64,000 bases of DNA from a virus (taxonomy: Duplodnaviria; Heunggongvirae; Uroviricota; Caudoviricetes): the IMG/VR virus record IMGVR_UViG_3300013004_000034. One strand, written 5' to 3'. The notes under the pieces were generated by a model, which searched no databases, had not been told where the DNA came from, and saw only the letters and a list, made by a program, of their open reading frames with translations. Each line of letters begins with the position of its first letter. Within the stretch, counting starts at the first letter, position 1. Made by a program: the position numbers and the translations under genes. Shown one piece after another: positions 862 to 40,785 of the stretch.

Positions 862-936
862 TGGTGCCTCTTTCCGGAATCGAACCGAATTCTGAGCATT
901 ACAAGTGCCCTGCATCGCCATTTATGCTTAAGAGGC
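862..936 (-). tRNA. tRNA-Thr(UGU)
   Basis: Full cloverleaf on the reverse complement: acceptor GCCTCTT/AAGAGGC, anticodon loop CTTGTAA, T loop TTCGATT, CCA encoded. Confidence 0.7.
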
Positions 937-940
937 ATAG

Positions 941-1015
941 TGGTACTTCCGGTTGGTAACGATCCAACTACCTCTCGCTTATCAAGCAAGCGCTCTACCA
1001 TTGAGCTACGGAAGC
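941..1015 (-). tRNA. tRNA-Ile(GAU)
   Basis: Acceptor GCTTCCG/CGGAAGT (one GU pair), D arm GCTC-AATGGTA-GAGC, anticodon loop TTGATAA, T arm GTTGG-ATCGTTA-CCAAC, CCA encoded. Confidence 0.6.
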
Positions 1016-1022
1016 ATGAAAT

Positions 1023-1097
1023 TGGCTGGGCAGACAGGACTCGAACCTGTAACCGTCCGGTTAACAGCCGGATGCTCTACCATTGAGCTACTACCCA
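1023..1097 (-). tRNA. tRNA-Asn(GUU)
   Basis: Acceptor TGGGTAG/CTGCCCA, D arm GCTC-AATGGTA-GAGC, anticodon loop CTGTTAA, T arm ACAGG-TTCGAGT-CCTGT, discriminator G then CCA. Confidence 0.65.
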
Positions 1098-1103
1098 AGA
1101 AAT

Positions 1104-1178
1104 TGGAAGATCCACCCGGAATTGAACCGGGGTAACAGGATTTGCAGTCCCGTGCCTAAGCCATTCGACCATGGATCT
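1104..1178 (-). tRNA. tRNA-Cys(GCA)
   Basis: Acceptor AGATCCA/TGGATCT, anticodon arm CGGGA-CTGCAAA-TCCTG, T arm CCCGG-TTCAATT-CCGGG, CCA encoded. The D stem is weak, at 3 bp. Confidence 0.5.
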
Positions 1179-1183
1179 AAAAT

Positions 1184-1258
1184 TGGTGGGATGGGGGAAT
1201 TTCGAAATCCCGACCCGCTGGTTAAGAGCCAGCCGCTCTGCCTCTGAGCTACCATCCC
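1184..1258 (-). tRNA. tRNA-Lys(CUU)-like
   Basis: Acceptor GGGATGG/CCATCCC, a perfect anticodon arm GCTGG-CTCTTAA-CCAGC, and CCA encoded. The T stem has a U53-U61 mismatch, so it may be atypical or a pseudo-tRNA. Confidence 0.45.
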
Positions 1259-1290
1259 ATAAACTTATTTATCATCCGCTCTATGAGATC

Positions 1291-1319
1291 ATATTACCAT
1301 ATTTGAGGTTCTATGTCAA
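1291..1319 (-). promoter_or_regulatory. sigma70-type promoter internal to the tRNA array
   Basis: Minus strand reads TTGACA, a 17-nt spacer, then TAATAT. Confidence 0.45.
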
Positions 1320-1344
1320 CCAAAGAGTTAGTAACCTAGAAGAT

Positions 1345-1419
1345 TGGAGGACCCTCTGGGGATCGAACCCAGGACGTACCGATTAAAAGTCGGTTGTTCT
1401 ACCACTGAACTAAGGGTCC
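1345..1419 (-). tRNA. tRNA-Lys(UUU)
   Basis: Acceptor GGACCCT/AGGGTCC, D arm GTTC-AGTGGTA-GAAC, anticodon arm ACCGA-CTTTTAA-TCGGT, T arm CTGGG-TTCGATC-CCCAG, CCA encoded. Confidence 0.7.
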
Positions 1420-1423
1420 GCAA

Positions 1424-1499
1424 TGGTGACCCCATCGGGGATCGAACCCGATTCTCCGGTTTGAGAGACCGGGATTCTAACCAAATAAACTATGGGGTC
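1424..1499 (-). tRNA. tRNA-Glu(CUC)
   Basis: Acceptor GACCCCA/TGGGGTC, anticodon arm CCGGT-CTCTCAA-ACCGG, T arm TCGGG-TTCGATC-CCCGA, CCA encoded. The D stem has two GU pairs. Confidence 0.5.
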
Positions 1500-1525
1500 G
1501 TGATAATTTGTAATCTACTATGGCT

Positions 1526-1693
1526 TTAACCTTTCCAGTGAAAGCCGGTGATAGGGCTAAAGTAGCCAATCTCTCGGCCGTCAGGCTGGAGAAGTATTGC
1601 CTCAAAACAAGCACGCTTCATATGATTAGTAGCCGCATCCACAGATTGGAAAGACTTGGTATAAGCAAAGTTTGTAAAGCTTACCAGGTACAT
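1526..1693 (-). CDS. small early ORF (55 aa), not in the ORF track
   Basis: An ATG sits directly after the leader GGTCATATCAACAGAGGGA, which follows a consensus promoter. The RBS is GAGGGAA. Confidence 0.3.
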   Translation of the reverse strand: MYLVSFTNFAYTKSFQSVDAATNHMKRACFEAILLQPDGREIGYFSPITGFHWKG

Positions 1694-1720
1694 TGTCTGA
1701 TTCCCTCTGTTGATATGACC

Positions 1721-1749
1721 ATTATAACCGGTCTAGGTCACTTTGTCAA
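1721..1749 (-). promoter_or_regulatory. consensus sigma70-type early promoter
   Basis: Minus strand reads TTGACA-17-TATAAT. It is followed by the leader GGTCATATCAACAGAGGGA, which is shared with the promoter at 2034..2062. Confidence 0.6.
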
Positions 1750-1822
1750 CGGTAGATTTGTTAACTTTTTGTAACCTAGACCGTATACAAGATACCATAT
1801 TCAATTGTCAAAGAGCAAGAAC

Positions 1823-2005
1823 TCAGACTTCCTTAATTCCGTTACAGGAGGCTTTCAGACTCAGAAGAAAGGACGAGTCAGCCTTGAAGAGAGCATGGTC
1901 GATAGCATCATTCTCAGTGTATGCAGTAACCTCGACCAGGAAGAGACCGATAAACTTACCGGATTGACGGTCAGAGATAGCAATCTCAACTTCGAAGTTT
2001 CGCAT
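1823..2005 (-). CDS. small early ORF (60 aa, MRNFEVEIAISD...)
   Basis: Uses the same promoter-leader as 1526..1693. The likely start is the ATG after GAGGGATACGACGAG, and the track ORF extends upstream in the same frame. Confidence 0.35.
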   Translation of the reverse strand: MRNFEVEIAISDRQSGKFIGLFLVEVTAYTENDAIDHALFKADSSFLLSLKASCNGIKEV

Positions 2006-2033
2006 CTCGTCGTATCCCTCTGTTGATATGACC

Positions 2034-2062
2034 ATTATACCAGGATTGTAGGAGGCTGTCAA
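2034..2062 (-). promoter_or_regulatory. consensus sigma70-type early promoter with an upstream palindrome
   Basis: Minus strand reads TTGACA-17-TATAAT. The palindrome ATTACAAATTTGTAAT at 2073..2088 lies just upstream of the -35. Confidence 0.6.
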
Positions 2063-2111
2063 CGGTAGTTTTATTACAAATTTGTAATCTAAGATACTGT
2101 ATACAAAGCGG

Positions 2112-2184
2112 CGAAGGTGGTAGGAGTCGAACCTTCGCCTGCGGTTTTGGAGACCGCCGTGCTACCGTAACACTTCACCGACGC
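2112..2184 (-). tRNA. tRNA-like element, possible degenerate tRNA-Trp(CCA)
   Basis: Anticodon arm GCGGT-CTCCAAA-ACCGC, D arm GTGT-TACGGTA-GCAC and T loop TTCGACT are present. The acceptor pairing is poor, and an 8-bp helix GGCGAAGG/CCTTCGCC competes with it. Confidence 0.3.
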
Positions 2185-2198
2185 AAACTATGCCTTAT

Positions 2199-3635
2199 TT
2201 AGGCATAGCGCTCATGCATGATAGTCTTCATCATAACACCCGTTGGAGTCATATCTTCCATGTCTCCTGAGAGCACGGACTTCAAGATCGAAGGGCTAAA
2301 GCCGGAGACCAAAGCAACTCCACGCTCATTGAACTTCACCGGCACATTGCTAGCTGCCATGATGTTCCAGAACACAATATTCGGAACAGTATAGCCAGCA
2401 GTTTCGTACTTACGGCGAATCATCTGCATTGCAGTATCATCAAAGCGAGTGCACTGGTCAAACTGCATGTCAGACATGATCAGCAGAGTAGCAGGCATCT
2501 CGGACTGAGGTACATCACCCTTGATTGCAACGTCAAGAATCTTCTCAAACGCAGCATGAAGATTGGTATTCATCTCCCACTTCGAAGTTACCATCTGCTG
2601 CACCTTCTGCAGGATATCACCCTTCAGATGCAAAAGCTGAGGGGAAGAAGAGAAGGTCAGGAATGTATCCTTGAACTTGCCCTTGTTCTTATCAGCACAG
2701 TACAGACCAAGGCTGACAGCTACGTCCATTGCGGTAGTCTTACCACCTGCAACACCAGCACCCATTGAGCCAGAGACGTCAACAAGAGCCAACACGTTAG
2801 CATCACCAACGTAGTTAGGCAGAGCATCCCACTGAGCCTTAACGACATCAAGTTCAGTCTTGTTATAGTCTGAACGCCAAGCGTAGTTGCTGACACCCTT
2901 CAGGACGTCATACGGATAAACTGCACCAGCGTTAACCTTTACAGTCTTGTCGCCCTTGACCAGCTTATCAACCCACTCCTTATACTTCGGAGTGTGGCGG
3001 TTGAAGGCCTTCTTATAACGGCTAGCCGCTACAGACGGAACATGAGAGAAGTTGATCTCATCCCAGTTCTTGGCACACATCTGAGTCTCAACAACCTTAG
3101 ATGCAGTGACAAGGGTCTTGCGGTACTGCTTAGGGCTCATGCCGAGCTTATTGCGCAGCTTGACAGCCATAGCACCCTTACGCGGGGTCCACTTGGCACA
3201 CAGACCATCATTGGCCATCAGTGCACGGCCGATCTTGGATGCAACAACATTCTGAATGTCTTCATCTACATCGTCCTCAAGCAGAACCAGAAGGTCATCC
3301 CAACGGCCGAGCTCAGGAGTCTTGTCAATGAGTCGAGTCAGCTCATGACCCATCAGATTCTTTGCTGCATGACGAAGAACCTTACGGTAGATCTCACGCT
3401 CACCTGCACCATTGCGGGCATCACGAGCCCAGAGTGCAATACGAGTGGCAATCTCGGCATCCTCAACAAATGCCGCCGTAAACGCAGGAATAGGATCCTG
3501 TCCACGCAGAGCGCCAATCTTGAAGAAGAGGTCTACGCATGCAGACGCGGTAGAAGCACGAGCCTTCATACCATTCTGAGTTCTGGAATCTTGGTTGATA
3601 ACGGCATTTACGAACGTATTCATCATAATCTCCAT
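2199..3635 (-). CDS. Ro60/TROVE-family protein with a C-terminal vWA (MIDAS) domain, Rsr-like
   Basis: The C-terminal ~190 aa align motif-by-motif to the Ro60 vWA domain: VDVSGSM/DVSASM, TFLTFSSSP, IMSDMQF/FTDNETF, GVALVSGFSPSILKSV/GMLDMCGFDTGALDVI. The N-terminus is alpha-helical and TROVE-like. The real start may be the internal Met at 3623. Confidence 0.65.
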   Translation of the reverse strand: MEIMMNTFVNAVINQDSRTQNGMKARASTASACVDLFFKIGALRGQDPIPAFTAAFVEDAEIATRIALWARDARNGAGEREIYRKVLRHAAKNLMGHELTRLIDKTPELGRWDDLLVLLEDDVDEDIQNVVASKIGRALMANDGLCAKWTPRKGAMAVKLRNKLGMSPKQYRKTLVTASKVVETQMCAKNWDEINFSHVPSVAASRYKKAFNRHTPKYKEWVDKLVKGDKTVKVNAGAVYPYDVLKGVSNYAWRSDYNKTELDVVKAQWDALPNYVGDANVLALVDVSGSMGAGVAGGKTTAMDVAVSLGLYCADKNKGKFKDTFLTFSSSPQLLHLKGDILQKVQQMVTSKWEMNTNLHAAFEKILDVAIKGDVPQSEMPATLLIMSDMQFDQCTRFDDTAMQMIRRKYETAGYTVPNIVFWNIMAASNVPVKFNERGVALVSGFSPSILKSVLSGDMEDMTPTGVMMKTIMHERYA

Positions 3636-3743
3636 AATGTTTAACAGGTTGGACTTGGTTGCTATATCAAAGCTTTAGATGCTGAACCCAACCTAGGGTT
3701 ATAACAGGATCGTTTTTTGCCCCCTCGGGCAGCTGCCAGGTCT

Positions 3744-3775
3744 TGGTTGGCAATGTTGGAGTCGAACCAACTAAA
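3744..3775 (-). ncRNA. isolated T-arm plus acceptor 3' strand plus CCA element (tRNA-like fragment)
   Basis: The reverse complement reads GTTGG-TTCGACT-CCAAC ATTGCCA A CCA. No matching 5' acceptor or canonical anticodon arm lies upstream. Confidence 0.3.
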
Positions 3776-3945
3776 AGGTTTTGCTGAACCGATCCTAGAA
3801 CTAATAAAGTAACAGAGTGGCTCCTACTTCTTTTTTAGCCTTGAGAAATCGAAGAACAAGGTTGTTGGTTTTGCCGAAGCTCCCCAACTGTTCTGGATGC
3901 GCTTGTAGGCGCGACGGTGTTGCTGTAACCACTCTAATATTAGAC

Positions 3946-4037
3946 AGGAAGCCTATAGTGCGGATTTGAACCGCTCCTATCGCGTTGAAGGCGATTGCTC
4001 TACCATTGAGTTAGATATGGTTTGCTGCAAGCTTCCT
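3946..4037 (-). ncRNA. tRNA-like cloverleaf module inside an extended terminal stem; candidate Y-RNA-like or pseudo-tRNA with an opal-reading UCA loop
   Basis: Contains D arm ACTC-AATGGTA-GAGC, a perfect anticodon-type arm ATCGC-CTTCAAC-GCGAT (anticodon UCA) and T arm GCGG-TTCAAAT-CCGC. There is no canonical acceptor stem. Instead a 7-bp terminal stem AGGAAGC/GCTTCCT encloses the module. Confidence 0.35.
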
Positions 4038-4159
4038 AAAACTTGTCGGGATCGTTTTGGTCCGCTAAGACTTACAGGGTTTAGCGTTTTTTGTTTGCTG
4101 AACCGATCCTAATAGTCGGGAATGAGGCTTAGTGAGTGTCTCATTCAATTTATAGGTTG

Positions 4160-4188
4160 ACTATATATCAAATTCCTTGATTTGTCAA
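4160..4188 (-). promoter_or_regulatory. sigma70-type promoter inside the ncRNA region
   Basis: Minus strand reads TTGACA, a 17-nt spacer, then TATAGT. Confidence 0.5.
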
Positions 4189-4237
4189 CCCACTTTTTAC
4201 ATCTGGAGCAGCTTTTTATGGTATAAAGCGCAAAAAT

Positions 4238-4313
4238 TGGTACCCGCTACGGGACTCGAACCCGTCCTGTAAAGATTTTAAGTCTTTTGCCTCTGCCGGT
4301 GGGCTAAGCGGGC
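4238..4313 (-). tRNA. tRNA with anticodon UAA (Leu-reading) but type-I architecture (5-nt variable loop)
   Basis: Acceptor GCCCGCT/AGCGGGT, anticodon arm AAAGA-CTTAAAA-TCTTT, T arm ACGGG-TTCGAGT-CCCGT, discriminator A, CCA encoded. Confidence 0.5.
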
Positions 4314-4314
4314 T

Positions 4315-4391
4315 TGGTAGTCACGGTCGGATTCGAACCGACACTTAACAGATTTTGAATCTGCCGCCTCTGCCAGTTGGGCTACGCGACC
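4315..4391 (-). tRNA. tRNA with anticodon CAA (Leu-reading), type-I architecture; paralog of 4238..4313
   Basis: Acceptor GGTCGCG/CGTGACT with two GU pairs, anticodon arm GCAGA-TTCAAAA-TCTGT, T arm GTCGG-TTCGAAT-CCGAC, discriminator A, CCA encoded. It shares the D-arm sequence GCCC..GGCAGAGG with its neighbour. Confidence 0.45.
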
Positions 4392-38720: not shown

Positions 38721-39848
38721 TTAGAAAGAGTCCTCAGCGCTCGCCATCCAATTGCTCCCTCTAGGAAGCTCAAGTACTTCATCTACAGGCATGCCATCGT
38801 CCATAAATCCAAACGGCAACATGTCTTGCGCGATCTCTTCATCAGTCTTTTCTCGTAGTTTTGCTAGAGTATTTATAGAAGTTAATTCTTTGAAGTACAT
38901 CTGATCTGAGAGCCATGCAAAGAGAACCAGACCCATGACTAAATCATCATGCTTCCCTGATTCTGCCTCGTACGATATACCTTTCCGCGAGAATGTAGAG
39001 AGTTCACTTATTGTTTCAAAGTCATAAAGAATCAGCTGATTCTGCTCTATCAATAGCTTTAGGATTGAACAACCAACTGACTTGACTGATTTGGTTGTTC
39101 TGATACCTTTATCAATATTTGTTCCAAAGCCAGATGTGATTCTCTTACCTGCTCTGCCGGCAGATTCAGTTGATAGAATGTTTTCATACTCAAAATCATA
39201 ATGCAGAGACGATGAAACTTGTTCACCTATGTCATTAATTTCTACAAGAACGGATGCATTATTATAGGACTTGCACACTCTATGCAGAATATCAGCATAG
39301 TCAACCGGTGTCACTAAGTTGTTTCGAAATGTGCATACTTGACGATAAGGCATTTCTGTAACATCTATTACACTGAATGCTGAATAGTCAAGCCCTTTAC
39401 CTCTTGATACGTCAGCTATACATGCATATGCTCGATCTCTTCTAGGCTCTTCATACTTTGACAAGCCTTCCTTGGAATAAAGCGGGACTTTATGAACCAG
39501 CTCTTTAAGCTTCCAACCGGAAATGAGTGTACCGGATGAACCTTGGAATTCTACACAATTATGATTTACTATTGATCCAGTTAGATACTCATGCTTTTCT
39601 CCAACATTAATAGGATCATATACATATACTTCTTCGTCAATTACTCTTTCAATAAATTTAGTTTGGTTGGCTTGAATAAAGGACCCCAAAATTTTTATTT
39701 TGTGATCTTCCGTGCATCTGATTATTTGGCCGTCTATGTTAAGAAGAACGGTTTTTGTTACCTTTTTTCTAGAGATGCCAGTAAATTGTTTAAATCCATC
39801 AGGTGTTAAAATTTTTATACCGGTGCGGTTTCGAGCAATTTCGACCAT
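38721..39848 (-). CDS. 17: large terminase C-terminal part: split-intein C fragment (aa 1-97) fused to the nuclease domain
   Basis: Block B TEDH, and the terminal ...GSIVNHN|CVEF (HN then Cys+1). The nuclease-domain similarity begins after the junction. Confidence 0.7.
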   Translation of the reverse strand: MVEIARNRTGIKILTPDGFKQFTGISRKKVTKTVLLNIDGQIIRCTEDHKIKILGSFIQANQTKFIERVIDEEVYVYDPINVGEKHEYLTGSIVNHNCVEFQGSSGTLISGWKLKELVHKVPLYSKEGLSKYEEPRRDRAYACIADVSRGKGLDYSAFSVIDVTEMPYRQVCTFRNNLVTPVDYADILHRVCKSYNNASVLVEINDIGEQVSSSLHYDFEYENILSTESAGRAGKRITSGFGTNIDKGIRTTKSVKSVGCSILKLLIEQNQLILYDFETISELSTFSRKGISYEAESGKHDDLVMGLVLFAWLSDQMYFKELTSINTLAKLREKTDEEIAQDMLPFGFMDDGMPVDEVLELPRGSNWMASAEDSF

Positions 39849-39879
39849 AACTTACTTTTTCCTGTAATAATATTTCGGA

Positions 39880-40785
39880 TCATTGTTGCATGAAAAAGAA
39901 AAGATCTTCAATTGCTATTTCTGAAATGGTACCGTCGTTGGTCTGAATAGTTACTTTTGTATCACCTGTAATACAAAACTCCTGGGCAAACTTTTCCAAG
40001 TCAAAGTTCAAACCAGATAGAGTATTTTGTCTCCACTGTTCATCTCTGCCCGGGACTCTATCCCACTTAACCATGATGTTCTTGTAGCTGTTACGTTTCT
40101 CTACGGCATTTTGCCATATGGCATAAAAGTGATTCAATCCATTTGGTGTAGATACCAAGACCACTTTGGTGCTCTTACCGGAAGAAACTGTAGGATAAAC
40201 TGATGTGAAGAATTCATCCCAGTTGTCAATGAAGGCAGCCTCGTCGATGAACAACAAGTTAATAGAGAAGCCTCGAATGTTGTCGGATGAAGTAGCGGTT
40301 GCCAGGACTCGGCTATTATTTTCTAGAACAAATGATCCCTTGTTCCACTCGTTGACACCGTGCTGCAACCACTTTGGCAAGTGCTGATATGCTAGCTGGA
40401 CCTTACCAAGAATTTCACGGGCAGTCTCAGCTTTATTTGCAAGAAGAGCAACGTTCTTGTCGCTATTAAAGAGGATATACCAAAGGATGAAAGCACAAGT
40501 AACGGTTGACTTTCCGGCCTGACGGCTTGTAGCAAAGATGCAGTATCGTTCCTCCTGCATCGAGTGAAGCATTTCAATCTGGTAGTCGTATGGTTCAAAC
40601 GCAATCAATCCGCGGTCTACGTTCACAATTTTCATGTAGCGCTTTACAAAGTAAACTACATCCTCCGAACACTTCACCCATTCTTGAACCATCTCTGGGG
40701 TCCAATTGACTTGTACTCCGGATCGCTTGAGGTTAGGATTGCCGTTGTAGAACTTTAAATTGTTGATGGGAGATTGTTCTGTCAT
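39880..40785 (-). CDS. 17: large terminase N-terminal part: ATPase domain plus a 31-aa split-intein N fragment
   Basis: Walker A ATSRQAGKST and Walker B LLFIDEAAF as in T4 gp17. It ends EF|CITGDTKVTIQTNDGTISEIAIEDLFFFMQQ*, which is intein block A. Confidence 0.75.
   Translation of the reverse strand: MTEQSPINNLKFYNGNPNLKRSGVQVNWTPEMVQEWVKCSEDVVYFVKRYMKIVNVDRGLIAFEPYDYQIEMLHSMQEERYCIFATSRQAGKSTVTCAFILWYILFNSDKNVALLANKAETAREILGKVQLAYQHLPKWLQHGVNEWNKGSFVLENNSRVLATATSSDNIRGFSINLLFIDEAAFIDNWDEFFTSVYPTVSSGKSTKVVLVSTPNGLNHFYAIWQNAVEKRNSYKNIMVKWDRVPGRDEQWRQNTLSGLNFDLEKFAQEFCITGDTKVTIQTNDGTISEIAIEDLFFFMQQ

Follow-up and report, generated by a model that had tools for sequence, protein, structure and literature searches.

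Why should the large terminase (TerL) of a T4-like phage be encoded by two genes? The question is raised by a 64,000-nt stretch of virus DNA (IMG/VR record IMGVR_UViG_3300013004_000034, Caudoviricetes), referred to here as the window, in which the ATPase and nuclease parts of TerL lie in two adjacent open reading frames (ORFs) with what appear to be the halves of an intein at the break. The answer that we favor on the basis of sequence comparisons, with a probability of roughly 0.85, is that this TerL is made as two genes whose products would be joined by class-1 protein trans-splicing, and that a homing endonuclease gene was probably lost from the break.

Two terminase genes and an intein at the break

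The features of the locus are given below as positions in the window. Both ORFs are on the minus strand. ExtN and ExtC are the N- and C-exteins, IntN and IntC are the N- and C-terminal parts of the intein, and a slash marks a junction or break. Relatives used for comparison carry locus numbers beginning with L.

39880..40785 (-): ExtN-IntN ORF, 301 aa, ending ...LEKFAQEF/CITGDTKVTIQTNDGTISEIAIEDLFFFMQQ and a stop
38721..39848 (-): IntC-ExtC ORF, 375 aa, starting MVEIARNRTGIKILTPDGF... (MVEIARNRTG...), with CTEDH inside and ...GSIVNHN/CVEFQGSSGTLISG
39976..40785 (-): N-extein, ATPase part of TerL (gp17-like), 270 codons ending ...LEKFAQEF; Terminase_6N
39883..39975 (-): IntN, 31 codons CITGDTKVTIQTNDGTISEIAIEDLFFFMQQ, block A with Cys1; aligns to CatN
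39880..39882 (-): TGA that closes the ExtN-IntN ORF, created at a putative deletion junction; from DNA alignment with L003
39849..39879 (-): spacer between the ORFs, 31 nt; from three-frame translation
39815..39883 (-): putative endonuclease scar, a 22-codon remnant ORF, MIRNIITGKSKLWSKLLETAPV and a stop; matches the L003 endonuclease C-terminus
39558..39848 (-): IntC, 97 codons, MVEIARNRTG...CTEDH (block B)...VYVYDPINV (block F)...GSIVNHN (block G)
38721..39557 (-): C-extein of 278 codons and a stop, with Cys+1 and then the linker and nuclease domain of TerL; Terminase_6C

Pfam searches identified Terminase_6N in the first ORF (E=1.3e-23) and Terminase_6C in the second (E=2.7e-8). Gene order around them is T4-like (neck protein, gp15, small terminase, TerL-N, TerL-C, sheath, tube), and TerL has kept its original place there, as two neighboring genes of the same orientation that carry the intein halves where the gene is broken. 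Three-frame translation showed that no frame stays open across the whole junction. The IntN frame is closed by TGA at 39882..39880, the IntC frame has a TAA at 39854..39852, one codon ahead of the IntC ATG, and the third frame is open through the spacer yet closed on both sides. Because of this TGA and TAA, a single insertion or deletion is unable to fuse the two ORFs. The spacer contains an AGGA Shine-Dalgarno-like motif (39863..39860) located 11 nt ahead of the IntC ATG. Folding of the spacer and junction RNA gave no significant structure (z=-0.27). A scan for promoters and terminators was no richer than shuffles and found no terminator-like site on the TerL strand at the junction.

An earlier note on this DNA had reported the two ORFs with block A, TEDH and His-Asn/Cys+1 motifs. 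These are present as described, and the limits it gave for IntN and IntC are exact. Its distance of 34 nt between the ORFs is right when the TGA stop is counted, the spacer itself being 31 nt. It had also placed stop codons in all frames between the ORFs. This does not hold for the third frame, which is open in the spacer, but its conclusion that there is no simple frameshift stands, at least two insertions or deletions being needed.

We compared the fused intein halves with known structures. The IntC part matched CatC of Cat, a consensus of atypically split TerL inteins (PDB 6DSL), at E=1.8e-13 (phmmer), and the window intein is ~39% identical to Cat. A family profile was also made from nine reconstituted members of the intein family, Cat included. 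This profile matched IntN to CatN at E=6.8e-4, although the Cat match obtained in this way is partly circular because Cat sits in the profile. Searched against PDB, the profile found inteins only, among them VidaL, gp41-1, NrdJ-1, PolB16, DnaX and RadA. When the halves were aligned with Cat and the contiguous L021 intein, the break fell directly behind block A, and IntC carried blocks B, F and G. Intein-free T4-like TerLs begin to align at residue 98-100 of the second ORF, and IntC is absent from them. These data support the idea, also put forward in that note, that this TerL contains a short-N/long-C naturally split intein of the AceL-TerL/GOS-TerL type; the homology to Cat, the break after block A and the sharing of this break by relatives all agree with it.

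Joining the exteins in silico gave a protein of 548 aa (270+278), in place of the ~577 aa that had been expected earlier. This protein aligned with T4 gp17 (3EZK) at E=9e-115 and without a gap across the junction, where FAQEF/CVEFQGSSGTLISG of the window faces FRQEH/TAAFEGTSGTLISG of gp17. The insertion point thus corresponds to H352/T353 of T4 gp17, a numbering that we checked against the Walker A lysine, which we take to be K166. The gp17 ATPase domain (2O0H) covers residues 8-278 of the joined protein and the RB49 nuclease domain (3C6A) residues 277-495; because of this coverage, the break at 270/271 is placed ~8 residues ahead of the boundary between the ATPase and nuclease domains. The tryptic junction peptide expected from spliced TerL is FAQEFCVEFQGSSGTLISGWK.

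Taken as a mechanism, the two TerL genes would be co-transcribed in the gp16-gp17-gp18 late block and translated separately. The short IntN would then dock on IntC, completing the HINT fold. An N-S acyl shift at Cys1, trans-thioesterification to Cys+1, cyclization of Asn97 of IntC and an S-N shift would follow, and the product would be the 548-aa TerL with the junction ...FAQEF-CVEFQGSS.... Co-transcription, association of the fragments and splicing are inferred, and so is the order of the evolutionary events given in the following section.

A putative endonuclease scar and the states of the site among relatives

Several relatives, found on viral and metagenome contigs, have the same break with an additional ORF of 209 or 220 aa between the halves. 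These are L003-L005 and L015-L017 (79-80% identity) and L006/L007 (54%). Pfam identified this ORF as GIY-YIG plus NUMOD3. In a DNA alignment the window matches L003 on both sides of a gap, and 626 bp are missing relative to L003. The breakpoint is CAACA/ATGAT, about 39884/39883, with 3 nt of microhomology. At this point the TGA stop of IntN is made from an internal "ATG ATT" of the endonuclease, read in another frame. The free-standing endonuclease gene is absent between the window halves, and in its place is the 31-nt spacer with a 22-codon remnant. The first 19 residues of the remnant MIRNIITGKSKLWSKLLETAPV are identical (19/19) to the C-terminus of the L003 endonuclease. The remnant ORF starts in an ATGA overlap with the IntN stop, crosses the IntC start and ends 33 nt inside IntC. 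It includes a C-terminal motif, RNII.GK.K.W, that is kept in the endonucleases of four lineages; because it is conserved between lineages that are only 39-49% identical, this motif is taken to be part of the endonuclease protein. From these comparisons the spacer appears to be the scar of a deleted GIY-YIG homing endonuclease gene, a point absent from the earlier note.

We then compared 80 metagenome loci, the majority of which are intein-free at the site used in the window. The others differ in what they hold at this site. In L021 the intein is contiguous and lies within a 691-aa ORF (...QEYS/CVTGDT...FFQIQ-NNYEILT...SHN/CEFQGSS), without any endonuclease-remnant sequence. In the cultured Vibrio phage 1.244.A an endonuclease module is fused in frame behind IntN. 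Free-standing endonuclease genes are found in L003, L006, L024 and L025, and an internally deleted endonuclease ORF of 103 aa in L020. The endonuclease gene is absent from the site in the window, L018 (5-nt gap), L019 (36-nt gap) and L022/23. The break point is common to relatives down to ~35% intein identity. Together, the relatives collected cover, at a single site of one gene, all the stages that the Dassa-Pietrokovski model proposes for how split inteins arise, as a series of contiguous intein, fused endonuclease, free-standing endonuclease, truncated endonuclease, scar only (the window) and tight adjacency without endonuclease (L018, L019, L022). This series and the apparent scar of endonuclease loss, still readable, are what is new here.

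In the fractured-gene model, the invading element supplies the start of the downstream gene and the endonuclease gene may be lost later (PMC2677866). With its endonuclease gene apparently lost, the window fits step III of this model (Dassa et al., 2009) and is not a fractured gene proper. Its history would be that a contiguous mini-intein was broken by an invading free-standing GIY-YIG homing endonuclease gene, giving the "fractured gene" layout, and that a later deletion of ~0.6 kb removed the endonuclease gene in the window lineage and spared its last 22 codons. The remnant would also supply the leader, the ribosome-binding site and the start of the IntC gene.

The same alignment could be read in the opposite direction, with the endonuclease-free split state as ancestral, the GIY-YIG gene inserted later and the window as an "empty site". 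This would change the history only. In its favor, homing endonuclease genes of the free-standing type do move into alleles that have none, the relative compared is 80% identical and is not a direct ancestor, and the breakpoint is marked by only 3 nt of microhomology. Against it, the window keeps 19 codons identical to the end of the endonuclease and in the endonuclease frame, with a motif that is conserved among divergent endonucleases, and its IntN stop is made out of Met-Ile codons from inside the endonuclease gene. No remnant sequence occurs in the contiguous L021 intein, and in L020 an endonuclease gene has been partly deleted independently. We consider the ancestral-state history quite unlikely and prefer a deletion. 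As alleles that differ naturally in the endonuclease gene, absent from the window and present in L003, and with mapped boundaries between them, the two make both the endonuclease target and the loss event testable.

Two further proposals go beyond the loss itself. The remnant may have been kept as an element that couples translation, in which case a piece of a selfish gene would have been domesticated to control assembly of the packaging motor. Its ATG overlaps the IntN stop (ATGA) and its frame runs through the ribosome-binding site and start codon of IntC, so that ribosomes ending at IntN could re-initiate on it and thereby adjust the proportion of the two TerL halves or make the IntC start accessible. 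The second proposal is that the 31+97-aa intein, which is without a hairpin that Cat has, could be a compact, orthogonal natural split intein for protein semisynthesis. We regard these two proposals, taken jointly, as unlikely.

Splicing residues, selection and reproducibility of the junction

The residues of a class-1 intein are complete in the window (C1, T-E-D-H, Y-D-P and H-N/C). In the family alignment Cys1, the block-B Cys and His of C-T-x-D-H, the block-F Tyr-Asp and the His-Asn/Cys+1 are invariant; the only exceptions are in the partial Cat row, which is without Cys1 as entered and carries the Asn-to-Ala mutation made for crystallization. We also compared substitutions between the window and L003. 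For IntN plus IntC the proportions of nonsynonymous (pN) and synonymous (pS) differences were 0.114 and 0.64, with a nonsynonymous-to-synonymous ratio (omega) of ~0.09; for IntN alone pN was 0.12 and pS 0.80; omega was ~0.10 for IntC and ~0.03 for the exteins, all of the omega values being rough because synonymous divergence from L003 is near saturation. Even so, purifying selection on the intein halves as protein is clear.

It is also conceivable that TerL functions as an enzyme of two non-covalently associated subunits, with the intein halves serving only as an association module and no splicing taking place. Because the break is ~8 residues from the natural boundary between the domains, the separate domains could fold alone. 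Fractured genes without splicing are documented, as with NrdA of phage Aeh1, which is fractured by an endonuclease gene and assembles with no intein involved (PMC2677866). However, every residue needed for the chemistry alone (Cys1, the block-B Thr and His, the block-F Asp, His-Asn and Cys+1) is kept in the window and all its natural relatives, and purifying selection acts on the intein halves. In addition, AceL-TerL, GOS-TerL and Cat all trans-splice in vitro (PMC11766414). A non-covalent enzyme therefore seems very unlikely, and trans-splicing the better account of the two pieces.

Several points weigh against this interpretation, starting with the near-saturated omega values. The time over which the window and L003 diverged may lie in part before the endonuclease was lost, and the deletion was deduced from an 80%-identical relative. 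Because IntN is so short, it matches CatN weakly on its own (E=0.21, 25 residues aligned; phmmer against PDB). The Pfam intein models are below their cut-offs (Vint, E=6.5e-4; Intein_splicing, E=0.08). IntC in the window clade is without a ~15-residue segment found in Cat and L021, the reason that the window IntC is shorter than that of Cat. Last, a single-sequence AlphaFold2 model of the fused intein had a mean confidence score (pLDDT) of 37.9 and was unusable.

The junction itself was found repeatedly. A 61-mer across it is base-identical in six loci that come from different samples and from JGI, ENA and Logan assemblies; one of the six (L009) may be the source contig of the window. Such agreement between contigs of different samples means that the break in TerL is no assembly artifact. 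The 301-aa ORF is present at the same spacing in these six loci, with a full call in five of the six and a call of 270 aa in L011, and the identical 375-aa protein occurs on at least 14 contigs. A megablast search of the locus against 50,697 phage records gave no match. A 118-aa IntC query gave zero matches in a word-index protein search, which reflects a limit of the index.

That the break is an error of sequencing or assembly, marks a pseudogene of a defective phage, or is bypassed by frameshifting or by readthrough of the TGA that ends the IntN ORF (the window has a tRNA with anticodon TCA that would read UGA) is hardly credible, given the six identical junctions from independent assemblies, the same break in relatives to ~35% intein identity, strong purifying selection on both ORFs, a TAA directly ahead of the IntC ATG that makes at least two insertions or deletions necessary, and a readthrough product of 26 extra residues that ends at another TGA in the wrong frame. 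We accordingly rejected a simple frameshift or assembly error, and we rejected UGA readthrough by the anticodon-TCA tRNA, since it does not join the TerL halves.

Known systems and further observations

TerL inteins split in this atypical way have been known since 2009 and serve as tools (PMC2677866; PMC11766414; PMC10189870). Cat was built from a consensus of GOS-TerL and AceL-TerL (PMC11766414). The window intein is like these three in having a large terminase as host, a break after block A, and a short IntN with a long IntC. Its halves are 31+97 aa, compared with 25+104 for AceL-TerL, 37+115 for GOS-TerL and 30+104 for Cat (PMC11766414). It shares Cys1/Cys+1 with AceL-TerL and Cat and has Glu at extein position -2 as in Cat (PMC11766414). 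By contrast with Cat, its Cys+1 is followed by V-E-F and not by E-F. The window intein is thus a divergent, compact addition to a kind of intein that is already known. For AceL-TerL and GOS-TerL we take the C-extein to begin with "CEF"; that the insertion site is shared is presumed from Cat, the 2009 description and this "CEF" start.

A second comparison is the gp17-like Myoviridae terminase from Lake Gatun, encoded by two adjacent genes with an intein split at an unusual point and an IntC of 122 aa that contains every motif but N1 (PMC2677866). The type of host and the unusual break are the same as in the window, and L003, L006, L024 and L025 show its GIY-YIG layout. Unlike it, the window is without a free-standing endonuclease gene and has an IntC of 97 aa. 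The gp41-7 locus has lost its endonuclease gene, which is step III of the model (PMC2677866). Like the window, it has adjacent halves of a split-intein gene with no endonuclease gene between them, read as a secondary loss; its host gene, however, is the gp41 helicase and its break point is canonical. Hairpins occur upstream of the endonuclease genes in fractured genes (PMC2677866). The gp41-7 locus kept such an upstream hairpin, whereas the window is without a significant hairpin and keeps the 3' coding end of the endonuclease.

Vibrio phage 1.244.A._10N.261.54.C3 (L001, MG592609.1, 532..3682) is cultured and has its TerL in NVP1244A_002/003 with the same break. Its IntC is 36% identical over the aligned first ~135 residues of the ORF. 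Unlike the window, it has the GIY-YIG module in frame behind IntN, in a 653-aa ORF, and it is filed under Ackermannviridae. Its coding sequences are labeled "coil containing protein" and "terminase-like family protein", with no intein annotated. This phage would be a tractable experimental system. VidaL and PolB16 OarG are also natural split inteins with a very short IntN and are distant relatives with the HINT fold (family profile, E=4.7e-7 for VidaL and 4e-5 for PolB16). PolB16 differs in being in a PolB-type DNA polymerase with Ser1/Ser+1 (PMC10189870), and neither of the two is a close homolog.

No survey of large-terminase split inteins came up in a literature search. Standard domain searches miss the window intein, the ORFs being labeled only Terminase_6N and Terminase_6C. 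Because TerL is a main phage marker gene, split TerL genes can distort phylogenies and estimates of completeness. Atypical split inteins with a short, synthesizable IntN are rare and are valued in protein labeling, and that of the window is divergent and smaller. Its uses are in annotation, as a case for the gene-breaking model and as a candidate tool; it will be no surprise to a specialist.

The insertion point seems to be shifted by one residue between clades (window 39555..39560 compared with relatives), with the spliced length being equal. The window, L003 and L006 read QEF/C-VEFQG and L021 reads QEYS/C-EFQG; L018, L019 and L022 have one extra residue ahead of Cys1 and CEFQ after the intein. 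In L025, where only the C-terminal side was seen, the sequence is HN/CEFQ.

Inteins were also found elsewhere in TerL. Those of L008 and L057 were rejected as orthologous insertions, being related inteins at other TerL sites, and L033 was rejected as an intein-bearing relative, being an intein-free TerL that matched only partially. L057 (2421..4883) encodes an 820-aa TerL with two contiguous related inteins, at the Walker A and Walker B sites, and is intein-free at the site used in the window (FKQEFMNEFQGSSGTLISG). It seems that one intein family colonized several TerL sites. L003 (223..2364), and also L015-L017, has a second, contiguous intein in the Walker A loop (SRQAGK/CVSEDT...GGILSHN/STVTCAF) that is absent from the window. 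Inside this intein, in another frame, is a 266-aa ORF (L003 596..1396) with an HNH-like motif (HHILPESLGG...).

In L019 (1021..4592), and similarly in L022/L023, TerL is in at least three pieces with two atypically split inteins. The intein of L019 ahead of Walker B (...IRGKS/CVSGDTRV...) has a 335-aa GIY-YIG ORF between its halves; the second is at the same site as in the window and has no endonuclease gene. The first TerL piece of L019 starts with an apparent C-half of a P-loop intein. A distant IntC-TerL ORF in L041 (1..2115), MKEIIKNINDYEILTPSGWSNISGIRK..., follows an upstream ORF (...YYYVDFKIKKKEKFQLIEIKG...) that seems not to be GIY-YIG-like and may be a different type of endonuclease at the same break.

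The tRNA with anticodon TCA is 70 nt long (window 3951..4020, minus strand) and was labeled as a selenocysteine (SeC) tRNA by ARAGORN. It lies in a tRNA cluster (862..4391) among 11 phage tRNAs and beside a normal tRNA-Trp(CCA). TGA closes 14 of the 49 large ORFs of the window, the ExtN-IntN ORF included, and this tRNA may be an opal suppressor.

Sinorhizobium phage phiN3 (L002, KR052482.1, 116..2331) has an extra 195-aa ORF labeled "terminase large subunit" (gp94). It resembles the N-terminal part of the ATPase, lies directly upstream of a full 543-aa TerL (gp93) and is seemingly unrelated to inteins.

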